A DNA stretch of 64,000 nucleotides from Candidatus Merdivicinus faecavium (GTDB lineage Bacteria > Bacillota > Clostridia > Oscillospirales > Ruminococcaceae), in assembly GCA_018716285.1 (NCBI GenBank), contig DVKD01000025.1, positions 42,000 to 105,999 on the forward strand, in the 5' to 3' direction. This document shows, piece by piece, positions 41,372-55,161 of this stretch. Each line of letters begins with the position of its first letter. Position 1 is the stretch's first letter. The notes below the pieces were generated by a model. The model made no database searches and was not told the DNA's origin. It worked only from the letters and a program-made list of their open reading frames with translations. Made by a program: the position numbers and the translations under genes.

Positions 41372-42664
41372 ATGAAAAACGAACTGCTTCGCTCGGCTGT
41401 CCGCTATATGTCCCGCAGCGTGCTGGGGATGATCGGGCTGTCCTGCTACATCCTGGCCGACACCTATTTTATTTCGGCCGCGATGGGCGCGGACGGGCTG
41501 GCCGCCCTCAACATCGCGATCCCGGTCTACAGCCTGGTCAACGGAACGGGGCTCATGATCGGGATCGGCGGCGCGACCCGCTGCTCGCTAGAATCCGGGC
41601 GCCCGGAGGAACAAAACGCAGCATTTACCGTTTCTTTCACGACCGGTCTGGGGCTTGGGCTGATTTTTGCCCTGATCGGCGCGTTGGGCGCAGAGGGGCT
41701 TGCCTCCCTGCTGGGTGCGGACGGGACCATCCGCGGGATGGCGGCGACCTACCTGCGGACCATCCTCTGCTTTTCGCCCTTTTTCATCCTCAACAACGTC
41801 GGCATCGCCTTTGGCCGGAACGACGGCGCGCCCGGCCGGGCGATGGCGGCCATGCTGACCGGGAGCTTCTCCAATATTTTTCTCGACTGGCTGTTCATGT
41901 TCCCGTTCGGGCTGGGAATGTTCGGGGCGGCGTTTGCGACTGGGCTCGCCCCGGTGATCGGCATTCTCGTTATGGCGGGGCATTTCCGGAAAAGCCGCCT
42001 GCGGCTCTGCCGCTGCGCCGGATGGGGCCGCCGCGCCGCCGATATGGTGAAGCTCGGCTCCCCATCGCTGGTAATTGAGGCGTCCTCAGCCGTGACGCTC
42101 ATCGTCTTCAACTTCCTCATCCTCGGCATTGCGGGCAACACCGGGATTGCGGCCTACGGGGTCGTCGCAAACCTCGCGCTGGTCGCGACGGCCGTCTTTA
42201 CCGGCATTTCTCAGGGCGTCCAGCCCCTGGTCAGCCAGGCCGGCGGCAGGGGGGAGCGGGCGCAGGCGGCGGCCCTTGCCCGCTGGACGCTGGGGATCTC
42301 GCTGGGTGCGGCGGCGCTGATCTATCTGGCCGTCCTGCCCGGAGCGGGGCTGCTGGCTTCGATCTTCAATGGGGAGGGCGATCCGGTTCTGCAGGAGATC
42401 GCGGTCAGAGGGCTGCGGATCTATTTCACCGGGTTCTTTCCGGCCGGGCTGAATATCGCGGCGGTTTCGCTGCTCGCGGCGGCGGGCAAGGGGCGGCCCT
42501 CCTTCCTTCTTTCCGCCGGCAGGGGGATTGTCCTGCTTGTCCCGGCGGCGCTTTTGCTGTCGCGGATTTTGGGGATGAACGGGATCTGGCTCGCCTTCCC
42601 CTGCGCCGAGCTGCTGACCCTCGCTGCGGCCATCCCCTTCCTGCGGCGGGAGATGCGCGGGTAA
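41372..42664 (+). CDS. MATE family efflux transporter
   Basis: VLGMIGLSCYILADTYFISAAMGADGLAALNIAIPVYSL and 12-TM-like hydrophobicity. AAGGAGGA RBS. Confidence 0.85.
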   Translation: MKNELLRSAVRYMSRSVLGMIGLSCYILADTYFISAAMGADGLAALNIAIPVYSLVNGTGLMIGIGGATRCSLESGRPEEQNAAFTVSFTTGLGLGLIFALIGALGAEGLASLLGADGTIRGMAATYLRTILCFSPFFILNNVGIAFGRNDGAPGRAMAAMLTGSFSNIFLDWLFMFPFGLGMFGAAFATGLAPVIGILVMAGHFRKSRLRLCRCAGWGRRAADMVKLGSPSLVIEASSAVTLIVFNFLILGIAGNTGIAAYGVVANLALVATAVFTGISQGVQPLVSQAGGRGERAQAAALARWTLGISLGAAALIYLAVLPGAGLLASIFNGEGDPVLQEIAVRGLRIYFTGFFPAGLNIAAVSLLAAAGKGRPSFLLSAGRGIVLLVPAALLLSRILGMNGIWLAFPCAELLTLAAAIPFLRREMRG

Positions 42665-46988: not shown

Positions 46989-47064
46989 TGGAGCTGATAA
47001 CCAGATTCGAACTGGTGACCTCGTCCTTACCAAGGACGTGCTCTGCCTACTGAGCCATATCAGC
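46989..47064 (-). tRNA. tRNA-Thr (anticodon GGT), CCA encoded
   Basis: Reverse complement GCTGATATGGCTCAGTAGGCAGAGCACGTCCTTGGTAAGGACGAGGTCACCAGTTCGAATCTGGTTATCAGCTCCA. Anticodon loop TTGGTAA. Confidence 0.9.
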
Positions 47065-47186: not shown

Positions 47187-47215
47187 TTGAATTATGGCGA
47201 CAATTGTGGTACAAT
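47187..47215 (+). promoter_or_regulatory. Sigma-A-type promoter for the thyX-like operon
   Basis: TTGAAT, 17 nt spacer, TGgTACAAT. Confidence 0.6.
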
Positions 47216-47261
47216 ATAGATAATTATACGCTTTTCAATACAGAAAAGGAAAGGAACCGCT

Positions 47262-47888
47262 ATGCTCACAACCGCAAACACCCAGGTTATGAACCTCCTG
47301 TCCGCCATGCGCGGCGCCCGCAATCCCCTAAACAGCTGGGACCGGATGGACAGCTGCCTCGACGGGGAAGGCAACTGCGTGCTCGGCCCCAACGACCTCA
47401 GCCTTGCCGTGCGGCTGACCCGCGCGGGCAGCGACCACCGCAAATTCCTCCGTCAGGTCTTTGTCTCGGTGGATATCACCGCCCCCCTTTACTGGTGGAA
47501 GGAATTCGACACCTACAAGGTCGGCACCGTCGCAAATTCCACCAGCACCATGCACAAGCTCCACGCCAAACCCATCGAACGCGCCGATTTTTCGATCGAC
47601 CAGATGACCCCCGAGACCCTCGCGCGGATGGACACCCTCATCGGCTGGCTGGAGGAGCTGCGGCTCGCCTTTGTCGAGACCAGGGAAAAATCGCACTGGT
47701 ACGACCTCATCCAGCTTCTGCCCTCGAGCTACAACCAGATGCGCACCTGCACCTTAAATTACGAAAACCTCATCAACATCTACCATGCCCGCAAAAACCA
47801 CAAGCTGGAAGAATGGCACGTCCTTTGCAGCTGGATCGAATCTCTGCCCTATGCCGCTGAATTGATCGTGCAGAAAGGGGAATCCTAA
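47262..47888 (+). CDS. ThyX-fold protein with degenerate catalytic signature
   Basis: 208 aa. VDITAPLYWWKEFDTYKVGTVANSTSTMHKL aligns by eye with the T. maritima ThyX segment [31 protein letters not shown], and LPSSYNQMRTCTLNYENLINIYHAR with [25 protein letters not shown]. The RHR..S..S.R motif is replaced by TYK..T..T.T. Confidence 0.65.
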   Translation: MLTTANTQVMNLLSAMRGARNPLNSWDRMDSCLDGEGNCVLGPNDLSLAVRLTRAGSDHRKFLRQVFVSVDITAPLYWWKEFDTYKVGTVANSTSTMHKLHAKPIERADFSIDQMTPETLARMDTLIGWLEELRLAFVETREKSHWYDLIQLLPSSYNQMRTCTLNYENLINIYHARKNHKLEEWHVLCSWIESLPYAAELIVQKGES

Positions 47889-48643
47889 TGCAGCCGGAAG
47901 CGCGCGGCCGTCTTTTTGTCCTTGACGGCCTGGACGGAGCGGGGAAGACCACCCAGACCGAGCGGGTCGCCGCGGCGCTGCGGGCGCGCGGGGAGAGGGT
48001 GCGGGTCATCTCCTTCCCCGATTATAAGGAACCGTCCTCCGCCCTGGTGCGGATGTACCTGGCCGGGGAGTTTTCAAGTGACCCCGACGAGGTCAACGCC
48101 TACGCCGCCTCCAGCTTCTACGCGGTCGACCGCTACGCGAGCTACCATAAATTCTGGCGGGAGGACTACGAATCCGGGGGCATCGTCCTTGCCACCCGCT
48201 ATGTGAGCTCCAACGCCATCCACCAGATGGCCAAGCTCCCCGCGGGGGAGTGGGAGGGATACCTGCGCTGGCTCGAGGACTTCGAGTATGAAAAGCTCGG
48301 GCTGCCCCGCCCGGACGCCGTGATCTTCCTTCAGATGGACCGGGCCGTCGCCGACCGGCTCATCCTCGCCCGCTATGAGGGGGACGCGGAGCGCAAGGAC
48401 ATCCACGAAAAGGACCGCGCCTACCTTGACCGCTGCCAGCAGACCGCCGCCTTTGCGGCAAATGCCTGCGGCTGGAAGGTCGTCCGCTGCGACGACGGGG
48501 ATGCGCCGCTCCCCTTAGAGGACATCACGGCGCAGATTCTGGCCGCCATTGACGGCGCTGCGGCCGCAACATCGTTTCCAGGAAAGGAACATCCGCGAAT
48601 ATGCAATTCCGACCCATTGAAATCGCCGACCGGGCGCTCGTGA
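47888..48643 (+). CDS. Thymidylate-kinase-like dNMP kinase
   Basis: LFVLDGLDGAGKTTQ P-loop, ISFPDY, DRYAS. 251 aa. Its ATG shares one base with the TAA of the ThyX-like gene. Confidence 0.75.
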   Translation: MQPEARGRLFVLDGLDGAGKTTQTERVAAALRARGERVRVISFPDYKEPSSALVRMYLAGEFSSDPDEVNAYAASSFYAVDRYASYHKFWREDYESGGIVLATRYVSSNAIHQMAKLPAGEWEGYLRWLEDFEYEKLGLPRPDAVIFLQMDRAVADRLILARYEGDAERKDIHEKDRAYLDRCQQTAAFAANACGWKVVRCDDGDAPLPLEDITAQILAAIDGAAAATSFPGKEHPRICNSDPLKSPTGRS

Positions 48644-49485
48644 GCCGCTATCAGAAGGAGCGGGACTACCCCGGCAACCAGTTTTCCTTCGGGACCCTCT
48701 TCATCTGGCGGAAGATCTATTCCACCGCCATCTGCGAGGAGGACGGCTTCCTCTTTGTGCGCCAGGGGCAGCCGGGGGCGTACAGCTACCTCTGCCCGCT
48801 GGGCGGGGATTTCCGGGAGGCGGTGGACAGGCTGCGGGCGCAGGCCGCCCGGGACGGGCAGCCGCTCCGGATTCTCTCCCTGCCGCCCGAGGAGAAAGAA
48901 AAGATCCTCGCCCTCTATCCGGAGGAGGAGGTCTCCGTTTCGGCCAACCGCGACCTTTTCGACTACCTCTATGAGCGGGAGCGGCTGCGCACCCTCGCCG
49001 GGCGCAGGCTCCAGCCCAAACGCAACTACCTCAACCGCATCCGCAAGAAAAACTGGTCCTACGAGCCGATTACGGCGGACAACCTCGACGAATGCTTCGC
49101 CATGCAGAAGCTCTGGTGCGCCGAGCACAACCGCTGCGCGGAGGAAAGCGTCCGCGCCGAGAGCTGCGCCGTGCGGCAGGCCTTCTCCCACTTTCAGGAG
49201 CTGGGCTTCGCGGGCGGCTGCATCCGCCTCGACGGGAAGATCATCGGCTACACGATGGGCGAGCCGCTCAATTCCGACACCTTCGTCGTCCACATCGAAA
49301 AGGCGTTCTCCGGTATCGAGGGTGCCTATCCCCTCATCAACCAGCAGTTCGTCGAACACGCGATGGAGGGGTTTGCTTACGTCAACCGGGAGGACGACGC
49401 CGGTTCGGAGGGGCTGCGCAAGGCAAAGCTCTCCTACGACCCCTGCCGGCTTCTCGAAAACTACCGGGCGCAGTTCCGGGCGTAG
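48601..49485 (+). CDS. DUF2156 protein (soluble homolog of the MprF/LysX C-terminal aminoacyl-transferase domain)
   Basis: MQFRPIEIADRALVSRYQ... N-terminus and LRTLAGRRLQPKRNYLNRIRK, YTMGEPLNSDTFVVHIEKA, GLRKAKLSYDP blocks typical of DUF2156. No TM segments. Overlaps the kinase gene by 43 nt. Confidence 0.7.
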   Translation: MQFRPIEIADRALVSRYQKERDYPGNQFSFGTLFIWRKIYSTAICEEDGFLFVRQGQPGAYSYLCPLGGDFREAVDRLRAQAARDGQPLRILSLPPEEKEKILALYPEEEVSVSANRDLFDYLYERERLRTLAGRRLQPKRNYLNRIRKKNWSYEPITADNLDECFAMQKLWCAEHNRCAEESVRAESCAVRQAFSHFQELGFAGGCIRLDGKIIGYTMGEPLNSDTFVVHIEKAFSGIEGAYPLINQQFVEHAMEGFAYVNREDDAGSEGLRKAKLSYDPCRLLENYRAQFRA

Positions 49486-49502
49486 CCCGAAGGAGGCGCG
49501 AG

Positions 49503-50345
49503 ATGCTGGATTTTGCCGCGCGGGAGGACCGGCGGGCGCTGGAAGAGCTCTGGCTCGCCTGCTTCGGCGGCCCGCAGGAGTATTTGGATTTTTATTTCGG
49601 CAGGCGCTTTGTCCCCGCAGACACCCTGGTCTGGCGGGAGGGCGGCCGGCCGGTCTCGATGATGACCTTAATGAATGTTTCCATCGCCGGGAGGGCCGGC
49701 GCCTACGTCTACGCGGTCGCCACCCTGCCAGCCTGCCGCGGCCGGGGGCTGATGCGGCGGCTGGACGGCTTTGCCAAGGAGGTCTGCCGCAGCCGCGGCC
49801 TCGCCTTCACGGCGCTGGTGCCCGCGAACCGGCCGCTTTTCGCCATGTATGAAAAGCTCGGCTACCACGCCGGCTTCTTCCTCTGGGAGGGGGAGGCGTC
49901 CATCGGACCGGCGTCTGCCGGACCGGCGGAAGGGGGCGTTTTCCCCTGCGGCTTCGCCGAATTTGCCCGGATGCGGGCCGGTTACCTTTCCCGCTTTCCC
50001 GGCGCGGTGATCCACCCGCAGCGGGAGCTGCGCTACATCTACGAGGAGCTGACAAACTTTTCCGGCAAGGTGTTCCGCCTCACCGGGCGGGAGGACTGCT
50101 ACGCCGCCTGCACCGTCCTCGAGGACCGCACCCTCTGGGTGCGGGAATGCAGCGCGGAAGATCCGTGCGCGGCCGCGCGGGCCATCCTCGCCGCACTGGG
50201 CCTCAAAAGGGCGAAGATCCACAGCCCGGACCCTTTCGCGGGGGCGCGGCGGATCCCTTACGGGATGGGGCGGCTGCTCGACGGGGACCGGCCGCTTTCC
50301 GCGGAATTTTCCGGCCCGTTTTACATGGCGCTCATGCTGGACTGA
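49503..50345 (+). CDS. GNAT family acyltransferase with C-terminal extension
   Basis: Start ATG after a GAAGGAGG RBS, in frame with track ORF 49092..50345. YVYAVATLPACRGRGLMRRL (acetyl-CoA binding Q/RxxGxG/A motif) and MYEKLGY. Confidence 0.65.
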   Translation: MLDFAAREDRRALEELWLACFGGPQEYLDFYFGRRFVPADTLVWREGGRPVSMMTLMNVSIAGRAGAYVYAVATLPACRGRGLMRRLDGFAKEVCRSRGLAFTALVPANRPLFAMYEKLGYHAGFFLWEGEASIGPASAGPAEGGVFPCGFAEFARMRAGYLSRFPGAVIHPQRELRYIYEELTNFSGKVFRLTGREDCYAACTVLEDRTLWVRECSAEDPCAAARAILAALGLKRAKIHSPDPFAGARRIPYGMGRLLDGDRPLSAEFSGPFYMALMLD

Positions 50346-50375: not shown

Positions 50376-50918
50376 ATGATTTACGTATTTCTGGCAAATG
50401 GTTTTGAAGAAGTCGAGGCCCTGACCCCGGTCGATTTCCTGCGGCGCTGCGAGCTTGACGTCCGGACGGTGGGGGTAAACGGCTCGGTTGCGACCGGCTC
50501 CCACCGCATCGCGGTCGCCTGCGACATGACCGTCGAGGAGATGGATATTTCCGCCGCCGACGCGGTCATCCTCCCCGGCGGGATGCCGGGCACCCTGAAC
50601 CTCGAGGCCTGCCCTCAGGTACAGGAAGCCGTCCGCTGGTGCGCGGAGCACGATAAGTGGGTCGGCGCCATCTGCGCGGCGCCCTCGGTGCTGGGGCATA
50701 TGGGCCTGCTCGAAGGGAAGAAGGCGACCTGCTTCCCCGGTTTTGAGCAGGAGCTTACCGGGGCGGAATTTTTGGCCGAGCCGGTCGTCCGGGACGGGAA
50801 GATCATCACCTCCCGCGGCGCGGGCACCGCTTCCCAGTTCGCCTTCGCCCTGATCGAGGCCCTTTGTTCGCCGGAGCAGGCTGCCCGGCTGAAAGCGAGC
50901 GTGCAATGGCAGAGCTGA
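50376..50918 (+). CDS. DJ-1/PfpI (YajL/ThiJ-like) family protein
   Basis: MIYVFLANGFEEVEALTPVDFLRR...VILPGGMPG...GAICAAPSVLG (nucleophile elbow Cys). Confidence 0.85.
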   Translation: MIYVFLANGFEEVEALTPVDFLRRCELDVRTVGVNGSVATGSHRIAVACDMTVEEMDISAADAVILPGGMPGTLNLEACPQVQEAVRWCAEHDKWVGAICAAPSVLGHMGLLEGKKATCFPGFEQELTGAEFLAEPVVRDGKIITSRGAGTASQFAFALIEALCSPEQAARLKASVQWQS

Positions 50919-51568
50919 CCGCCCGCACCGATATCCGCATCGTCAAACGGGAGCTGCGGGCGCGGATGAAGGAGATCCGACGCTCCTTTGACCCCGCGCG
51001 CAAGGCGCAGAAGGACGCGGCCATCCTGAAGCGGCTGACCGCCCTCCCGGAATACCAGTCGGCAAAGCTGCTGCTCACCTATGTTTCGACTGCCATCGAA
51101 GTGGACACCCATGCCCTCATCCGCCGGGCCTTTGCCGACGGGAAGCGGGTGGCGGTGCCGTACTGCATCCCGGGGCGGGTGGATATGCTGTTCTGCGAGA
51201 TTTTTACGCTCGACGACCTTTCCCCCGGCAGTTTCGGGGTGCTCGAGCCGGACCCGGAGCGGCAGCCGGTCTTAACAAGCTTTCCCCGTGCGCTCTGCAT
51301 CCTGCCCGGGCTGGCTTTTGACCTGCACGGCTACCGGCTGGGCTACGGCAAGGGGTACTACGACCGGTTCCTCTCACGCTACCACGGGCCGGCCGTCGGG
51401 GTGTGCTACAACGCCTGCCTGCAAACCTCCCTGCCGCACGGCAGGTTCGACCGGATGGCCGCCGCGCTGGTGACCGAGAAATTTGTCAAGCGGTTCCCGC
51501 AGCCGGAGCGCCCGGCGCGGCCCCGCCGCATGTTCCGCAAGGAAGGAGAAGCCTATGGACGAAGATAA
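50906..51568 (+). CDS. 5-formyltetrahydrofolate cyclo-ligase
   Basis: Start trimmed to MAELTARTDIRIVKRELRARM. PGLAFDLHGYRLGYGKGYYDRFL signature. Confidence 0.85.
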   Translation: MAELTARTDIRIVKRELRARMKEIRRSFDPARKAQKDAAILKRLTALPEYQSAKLLLTYVSTAIEVDTHALIRRAFADGKRVAVPYCIPGRVDMLFCEIFTLDDLSPGSFGVLEPDPERQPVLTSFPRALCILPGLAFDLHGYRLGYGKGYYDRFLSRYHGPAVGVCYNACLQTSLPHGRFDRMAAALVTEKFVKRFPQPERPARPRRMFRKEGEAYGRR

Positions 51569-54904: not shown

Positions 54905-54925
54905 CGCCACATTTTCACACAAAAA

Positions 54926-54961
54926 ACAGACGGATCCAAAACGGTTCCGTCTGTTTTTTTG
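54926..54961 (+). terminator. Intrinsic terminator ending the thyX-like to U32 gene string
   Basis: ACAGACGGA...TCCGTCTGT followed by TTTTTTT. Confidence 0.7.
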
Positions 54962-55161
54962 CGTGGAGATGCCTCGCGGAGGGGGAGCAAGCGGCGGTTT
55001 TGCGGCGTTATCCCATCATTGCGGGGGATCCCCGCCCCTACAGATTAGACAGGAAATGCGCGGTAAACGGCCTCCTGAACAACCTCAAACCGGTGGACAG
55101 GAGCGGTCGGATAAGGGTGTGCTGCCGCGTCGAATCGGCAGCGCGGACACCGCGCCGCACG

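Follow-up and report, generated by a model that had tools for sequence, protein, structure and literature searches.

The 64,000 bp stretch analyzed here (the window; positions 42,000 to 105,999 of the forward strand of contig DVKD01000025.1, assembly GCA_018716285.1, Candidatus Merdivicinus faecavium, Ruminococcaceae) contains an open reading frame (ORF) for a 208 amino acid protein that is very probably (we estimate about 80%) the organism's thymidylate synthase, which converts dUMP to dTMP. Cells cannot do without thymidylate synthesis, for which textbooks and reviews recognize two enzyme families, ThyA and ThyX. The protein is a member of neither by sequence, and we refer to its family as NF; it is most likely an undescribed family whose fold and cellular role are both known but whose catalytic signature has been replaced. 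No alternative route to dTMP was found in the genome, NF genes occupy positions that are held by thyX or thyA in related bacteria, and NF is distributed in a manner complementary to those two enzymes; NF is therefore most likely a thymidylate synthase. A preliminary description of this DNA had considered dUMP methylation doubtful and proposed that the protein might act on a different nucleotide or be regulatory, a view that does not agree with the lack of ThyA, ThyX, thymidine kinase (Tdk) and deoxynucleoside kinase (dNK), the thyX slot and the complementary distribution.

The source genome is a 2.66 Mb draft in 61 contigs that is 95% complete. Hidden Markov model (HMM) searches found no ThyX, ThyA, Tdk or dNK in it, and tblastn with the ThyA, ThyX and dihydrofolate reductase (DHFR) proteins of relatives returned nothing; by these two methods, neither a canonical thyA or thyX nor a second thymidylate kinase gene (tmk), which the preliminary description had proposed to look for, was found elsewhere in the genome. 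A dUTPase, SHMT and exactly one thymidylate kinase (Tmk), encoded by the gene coupled to that of NF, are present. None of the 12 genomes of the genus has a Tdk. According to reviews (PMC1971073, PMC5954106), the few bacteria that lack both thyA and thyX carry tdk.

Each of 41 relatives has NF, ThyX or ThyA, and there are only three doubles, in each of which one copy is weak or divergent (genomes, contigs and loci are designated below by our G, C and L numbers). Among 151 evenly sampled Clostridia genomes, none of the 7 NF carriers but 135 of the 144 non-carriers have ThyX or a strong ThyA (Fisher's test, 4e-8, which is overstated since the genomes are related; G139 was unscorable for ThyX and NF). 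NF is also found without ThyA or ThyX in Lacrimispora xylanisolvens DSM 3808, Copranaerobaculum intestinale, an Intestinibacillus chromosome and a Coprobacillaceae isolate.

Several less usual arrangements were seen in these genomes. Weak partial matches to ThyA (38–55 bits, profile positions ∼91–250) lie in frames of ∼210–280 amino acids in G029, G033, G061, G077, G109, G132, G159 and G182; in G029, G077, G109 and G182 this frame is the sole thymidylate-synthase-like gene and may represent a divergent ThyA branch. Four members of the Clostridia sample that are at least 90% complete (G119, G124, G145 and G172) have none of ThyA, ThyX and NF. In G059:C7, G094:C13 and G153:C4, a single frame of ∼450–490 amino acids carries two Thy1 domains in tandem and thus encodes a duplicated, fused ThyX. 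Finally, G024 carries two ∼48% identical NF copies (54–55% by genome search) at contig ends (C43 and C44; L204 and L205) in addition to a canonical thyX-tmk locus, and these NF copies are probably prophage-borne or mobile.

The relationship of the 208 amino acid protein to ThyX is visible at the structural level only. An AlphaFold2 model built from an alignment of 58 cellular and phage relatives (predicted local distance difference test [pLDDT] score 89, predicted template modeling [pTM] score 0.77) has a predicted ThyX fold: the top 50 Foldseek matches in the PDB are all ThyX (E 8e-7 to 2e-5, template modeling [TM] scores 0.6–0.70, 13–19% identity) and include Helicobacter pylori 3AH5 and 3N3Y and Thermotoga maritima 1O26. 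In the viral structure library BFVD, uncharacterized gut-phage proteins match best, and annotated ThyX-like synthases come next. Sequence methods gave a different result. The protein has no match in Pfam or NCBIfam at E ≤ 0.1, which includes the Thy1 model PF02511 that the preliminary description had suggested searching with; it does not reach the Thy1 gathering score, and NF orthologs in G096 and G152 score ∼20 bits, also below the cut-off. Phmmer and the NF family profile retrieved no ThyX chain among PDB sequences, only chance matches. Alignment of NF with 20 and then 39 ThyX sequences by hhalign gave E values of 0.037 and 0.007 (probability 1–5%), with the C-terminal block alone in believable register. 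The ThyX likeness that had been seen by eye across two core segments is upheld at the level of the fold. The ThyA profile PF00303 also does not match the protein, and the fold search returned only ThyX. In a PADLOC scan, the protein matched none of the anti-phage defense models.

The preliminary description had correctly noted that the RHR/Ser/Arg signature of ThyX is missing, and the TYK…STM sequence that stands in its place is itself invariant in NF. Residues 83–97 read DTYKVGTVANSTSTM, as was quoted there, and the full stretch extends from D83 to H98 (DTYKVGTVANSTSTMH); D83, Y85, K86, T89, S93, S95, T96, M97 and H98 are identical in all 58 cellular and phage NF members compared. Relative to ThyX, T-Y-K replaces R-H-R and S-x-S-T-M-H replaces S-x-R-Y, and true ThyX proteins of the relatives retain RHR...SQRY. 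In the model the NF motif comes after a helix (residues 76–85), as RHR does after the equivalent ThyX helix, although residues in this central region were matched by eye and by the order of secondary-structure elements, with no statistical support. In the C-terminal block, NF Asn166 pairs with the Asn of the ThyX N-A-R motif, Glu168 stands in place of its Arg, and Arg177 pairs with Arg192 of the relatives' ThyX, which is taken to be Arg174 of the T. maritima enzyme. The 58 sequences share 41 invariant columns, mostly polar or aromatic; conservation of this kind indicates that NF has a real active site.

The genes around NF are those expected near a thymidylate synthase, a thyX slot before tmk and a thyA slot before folA. 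Canonical thyX lies directly 5′ of the orthologous tmk in 14 of 20 ThyX-bearing relatives, often with an overlap of 1–4 nt (1 nt in L193; in L179 thyX ends at 982 and the tmk match starts at 978), and in most of these an LPG_synthase_C gene, a DJ-1 gene and a 5-formyltetrahydrofolate (5-FTHF) cyclo-ligase gene come next, the same string as in the window. The cyclo-ligase gene lies within the thyX-tmk loci of L179, L185, L189, L195 and L196, and LPG_synthase_C follows tmk both in ThyX-bearing relatives and in the same-genus NF carriers. Of 30 folA loci in Lachnospiraceae, 24 are directly preceded by thyA, and three have NF next to folA instead; among 80 wider genomic NF loci, a DHFR gene is adjacent in 28 and directly downstream in 23, sometimes with a 4 nt overlap. 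The features of the window locus, all on the forward strand, are as follows.

47187..47215, forward strand: putative promoter, TTGAAT-17 nt-TACAAT with a TG extension before the -10 (consensus scan, 9/12 matches), 47 nt 5′ of the ATG
47242..47256, forward strand: Shine-Dalgarno-like purine-rich stretch AGAAAAGGAAAGGAA, read from the sequence, preceding the ATG at 47262
47262..47888, forward strand: gene for the 208 amino acid ThyX-fold protein of family NF, predicted thymidylate synthase (ORF, phrog_6721, fold model and genome context)
47508..47555, forward strand: codons of residues 83–98, the NF invariant motif at the position of the ThyX signature (58-sequence alignment, register by eye)
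47790..47792, forward strand: codon of the invariant Arg177, in the sole block aligned by hhalign, pairing with a conserved ThyX Arg
47886..47890, forward strand: TAATG stop/start overlap that couples the NF gene to tmk (read from the sequence)
47888..48643, forward strand: tmk, dTMP kinase of 251 amino acids, the sole genomic copy (PF02223; orthology with the tmk of relatives)
48601..49485, forward strand: LPG_synthase_C (DUF2156-type) gene, synteny partner 3′ of tmk (PF09924, 172 bits)
50376..50918, forward strand: DJ-1/PfpI family gene, synteny partner that is also found in the thyX-tmk loci of relatives (PF01965, 151 bits)
50864..51568, forward strand: 5-FTHF cyclo-ligase gene, a folate-recycling enzyme and synteny partner (PF01812, 139 bits)

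The two ORFs and their junction are as the preliminary description gave them: the sequence ...TCC TAA TGC... makes the last A of the NF stop codon the A of the tmk initiator, a 1 nt overlap, and the cyclo-ligase that it placed in the same gene string is confirmed by the Pfam match. The 417 amino acid ORF at 49092-50345 (forward strand) shares ∼400 nt with the LPG_synthase_C gene in a different frame, and its true start is probably near 49479 (MLDFAARE...). An Rfam scan found no riboswitch upstream of the NF gene and returned only a tRNA on the opposite strand; this is tRNA-Thr (GGT) at 46989-47064 (reverse strand), which is divergent from the operon and is the sole nearby RNA gene. Its promoter, with a perfect TTGACA-17-TATAAT and a TG extension, lies directly 5′ of it at 47121-47093 (reverse strand). 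Farther away in the window, at 54919-55010 (forward strand), a match to the ylbH leader RNA falls short of the threshold (26.6 bits vs. a gathering score of 50).

The kinase downstream of NF is the ordinary and only housekeeping Tmk. It matches Thymidylate_kin (PF02223) at 68 bits (cut-off 27) and is 46–58% identical over residues 5–214 to the Tmk encoded 3′ of thyX in relatives. It scores best against the NF005923 (PRK07933) model but falls below the NCBIfam equivalog cut-offs (121.5 vs. 193 bits for NF005923 and 51.2 vs. 83.25 for TIGR00041), as a divergent clostridial Tmk, and the PADLOC scan gave only marginal P-loop matches to it. The preliminary description had called it Tmk-like and larger than typical; the family and the greater length are right, but the excess is a nonconserved C-terminal tail of ∼25 amino acids (GAAAATSFPGKEHPRICNSDPLKSPTGRS, window 48530-48643) on an otherwise ordinary enzyme, since the Tmk proteins of relatives have 220–229 amino acids. 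The final 43 nt of the tail lie within the LPG_synthase_C gene (start 48601), and the tail seems to result from a lineage-specific late stop codon.

The NF-tmk coupling is inherited from an ancestral thyX-tmk operon and is no special partnership, and for this reason the pair is rare outside the genus. NF-tmk-LPG_synthase_C is present in all nine other loci of the genus, so the pairing, whose conservation the preliminary description had wished to see surveyed, does hold there, but beyond it tmk lies next to NF in only 2 of the 80 wider genomic loci and none of 80 viral loci. Pairing with Tmk was accordingly rejected as a defining feature of NF. In the history we propose, the ancestral string was thyX-tmk-LPG_synthase_C-DJ1-5-FTHF-cyclo-ligase, and NF would have taken the place of its first gene, canonical thyX, in situ and would have inherited the translational coupling to tmk; dTMP synthesis and phosphorylation to dTDP would therefore be co-expressed.

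NF is a large family. The 208 amino acid protein matches phrog_6721 ("unknown function") over its full length (E 2e-65), and this group, which has no functional annotation, constitutes the phage branch of NF. There are >8,000 close NF homologs, all unnamed or "hypothetical," and NF comprises 3,705 clusters at 50% identity (E ≤ 1e-3). Chromosomal copies occur in Lachnospiraceae (Lacrimispora, Hungatella, Enterocloster), Oscillospirales and Erysipelotrichales and are 63–88% identical across families; many others lie on phage contigs. A tree of 172 NF sequences divides cellular from viral copies, with the label changing only twice, and the chromosomal copies form a clade apart from phrog_6721. 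A full-text literature search, with subscription journals outside its coverage, found no description of NF or of a thymidylate synthase with a ThyX fold that lacks the motif. Some phage contigs (L094 and five other viral loci, L097, L156) have NF beside a guanylate-kinase-like dNMP kinase, DUF3310 proteins and D5-type primase-helicases, neighbors that belong to replication and nucleotide-metabolism modules. A far more divergent relative (31% identity, 73 bits) is present at G062:C134:23025-23477, in a genome that also has no ThyA or ThyX, and hints at deeper NF branches.

If NF is a thymidylate synthase, its active site would be a ThyX scaffold with a rebuilt signature that keeps the Arg equivalent to T. 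maritima Arg174. Methylene-tetrahydrofolate would serve as the carbon donor, tetrahydrofolate rather than dihydrofolate (DHF) would be regenerated, and an external reductant, probably acting via flavin, would be required. This ThyX-like stoichiometry is favored because most NF carriers do not have FolA: a FolA-type DHFR is missing from 24 of the 28 carrier genomes tested, including all 12 of the genus. Absence of DHFR is a known hallmark of ThyX users (PMC1971073), and within the same order a strong ThyA was seen in three genomes, each of which also has FolA (next to thyA in two). From the FolA pattern we lean, by a small degree, toward ThyX-like redox chemistry for NF. The argument that the enzyme must make DHF given the existence of folA operons was considered and is weakened by the missing FolA in those 24 carriers.

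Several points weigh against the view that NF is a thymidylate synthase of ThyX type. NF-ThyX homology is below statistical detection by profile methods. The residues that hydrogen-bond dUMP in ThyX (Arg78, Arg80, Ser88 and Arg90 in T. maritima numbering; PMC3498832) have no counterparts in NF, and substrate and flavin binding would therefore need rebuilding. NF and ThyX are present together in G007 (a weak ThyX, 100 bits), G041 (156 bits) and G024 (where the NF copies are divergent). The genomes are related and many are metagenome-assembled, so the statistics overstate their independence. Lastly, the tight NF-folA operons of Lachnospiraceae suit a DHF-producing, ThyA-like chemistry equally well. 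Two recurrent gene neighborhoods were also noted. In Lachnospiraceae, L209-L212 and L172-L177 have a conserved NF-folA-nfnA-nfnB string, in which the NfnAB-like pair (a DHODB_Fe-S_bind/NAD_binding_1 protein and a GltD-like Pyr_redox_2 protein) could supply NADPH. In L065 and seven other genomic loci a short-chain dehydrogenase gene that matches no specific NCBIfam family lies directly 5′ of NF on the same strand (it overlaps the NF start in L065), and its product could serve as a redox partner or as an alternative reductase for folate or pterin.

Among other explanations, a thymidylate synthase whose chemistry is not that of ThyX, being flavin-independent, using methylene-tetrahydrofolate as both donor and reductant with production of DHF, or depending on another cofactor, seems unlikely. 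The loss of RHR and the other ligand-binding arginines of ThyX would fit it, as would the translational coupling of NF to folA in the thyA slot of many Lachnospiraceae and the short-chain dehydrogenase that overlaps the NF start in eight loci; yet in the 24 of 28 NF genomes without FolA a DHF producer would drain the reduced folate pool unless they have an unknown DHFR, and NF has no invariant Cys that could act as a ThyA-like nucleophile. A broader proposal, that NF represents, in mechanism, a third class of thymidylate synthase with a ThyX-derived scaffold, no arginine signature and different cofactor use, which has spread horizontally among gut Clostridia and their phages and displaced ThyA and ThyX, is doubtful; under it the enzyme may be flavin-independent or may use a different reductant or one-carbon carrier.

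It is less probable still, and we think rather improbable, that the substrate of NF is another pyrimidine nucleotide or a modified one (dCMP or UMP, for instance, or with hydroxymethylation as the reaction) and that thymidylate comes from some unidentified source. Phage ThyA homologs with such altered specificities are known (bioRxiv 10.1101/2024.12.05.627091), the ThyX paralog PolB methylates UMP (PMC5954106), and both the altered NF signature and the abundance of NF in phages beside dNMP-kinase-like genes could be read in this way. Such an activity leaves unexplained why chromosomal NF excludes ThyA and ThyX, why it lies exactly in the thyX and thyA slots, and where carriers without Tdk obtain dTMP; moreover, cellular NF proteins form their own clade apart from the phage copies. 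Finally, the canonical catalytic residues are gone and the source genome is an incomplete draft, which might suggest that NF is a noncatalytic or regulatory ThyX derivative or that the absence of ThyA and ThyX is an assembly artifact. Either is very improbable, given the 41 invariant columns shared by cellular and phage NF, which argue for an active site, and the same absence in 11 further genomes of the genus, in G019, G040, G061, G126 and G178 (99–100% complete) and in the Intestinibacillus chromosome.

Taken as a thymidylate synthase, NF can be compared with three known enzymes. It is closest to ThyX (flavin-dependent thymidylate synthase; PF02511 Thy1; EC 2.1.1.148; TM0449 1O26, H. pylori 3N3Y), with which it shares its fold, a similar size, the slot 5′ of tmk, the proposed role as sole thymidylate synthase in genomes that mostly have no FolA, and a C-terminal block (LP..(T).N...L.N....R) that includes the Arg equivalent to Arg174. 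It differs from ThyX in that RHRxxS...SxRY is replaced by TYKxxT...SxSTMH and the Arg of N-A-R by Glu, in having no Thy1 HMM match, and in invariant residues of its own (R17, R20, N21, S25, D30, K61, R64, Y85, K86, H98, Y167, H180, K181 and W185). ThyA (PF00303; EC 2.1.1.45) would make the same product and occupies the slot 5′ of folA that NF has in Lachnospiraceae, but its fold is unrelated, its HMM does not match NF, it has a conserved catalytic Cys that NF does not have, and it requires the DHFR that most NF genomes do not carry. PolB, a UMP/dUMP C5-methylase of polyoxin biosynthesis, is a precedent for a ThyX-fold protein with changed specificity (PMC5954106); unlike NF, which appears to replace the housekeeping enzyme, it is a recognizable ThyX paralog, belongs to an antibiotic gene cluster and is found together with a housekeeping thyX.

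The rule that bacteria without thyA and thyX carry tdk does not hold for this genus or for many gut Clostridia, cultured Lacrimispora and Copranaerobaculum among them, and NF would fill that gap. If our assignment is correct, the known thymidylate synthases would gain a family that lacks the ThyX motif, metabolic reconstructions that score these bacteria as thymidine auxotrophs would be corrected, and bacterial and phage genes that are now "hypothetical" (phrog_6721), numbering in the thousands, would receive an annotation. NF would also be a natural experiment on which ThyX residues the chemistry really needs, and it would bear on the selectivity of antifolates and ThyX inhibitors in the gut microbiota.

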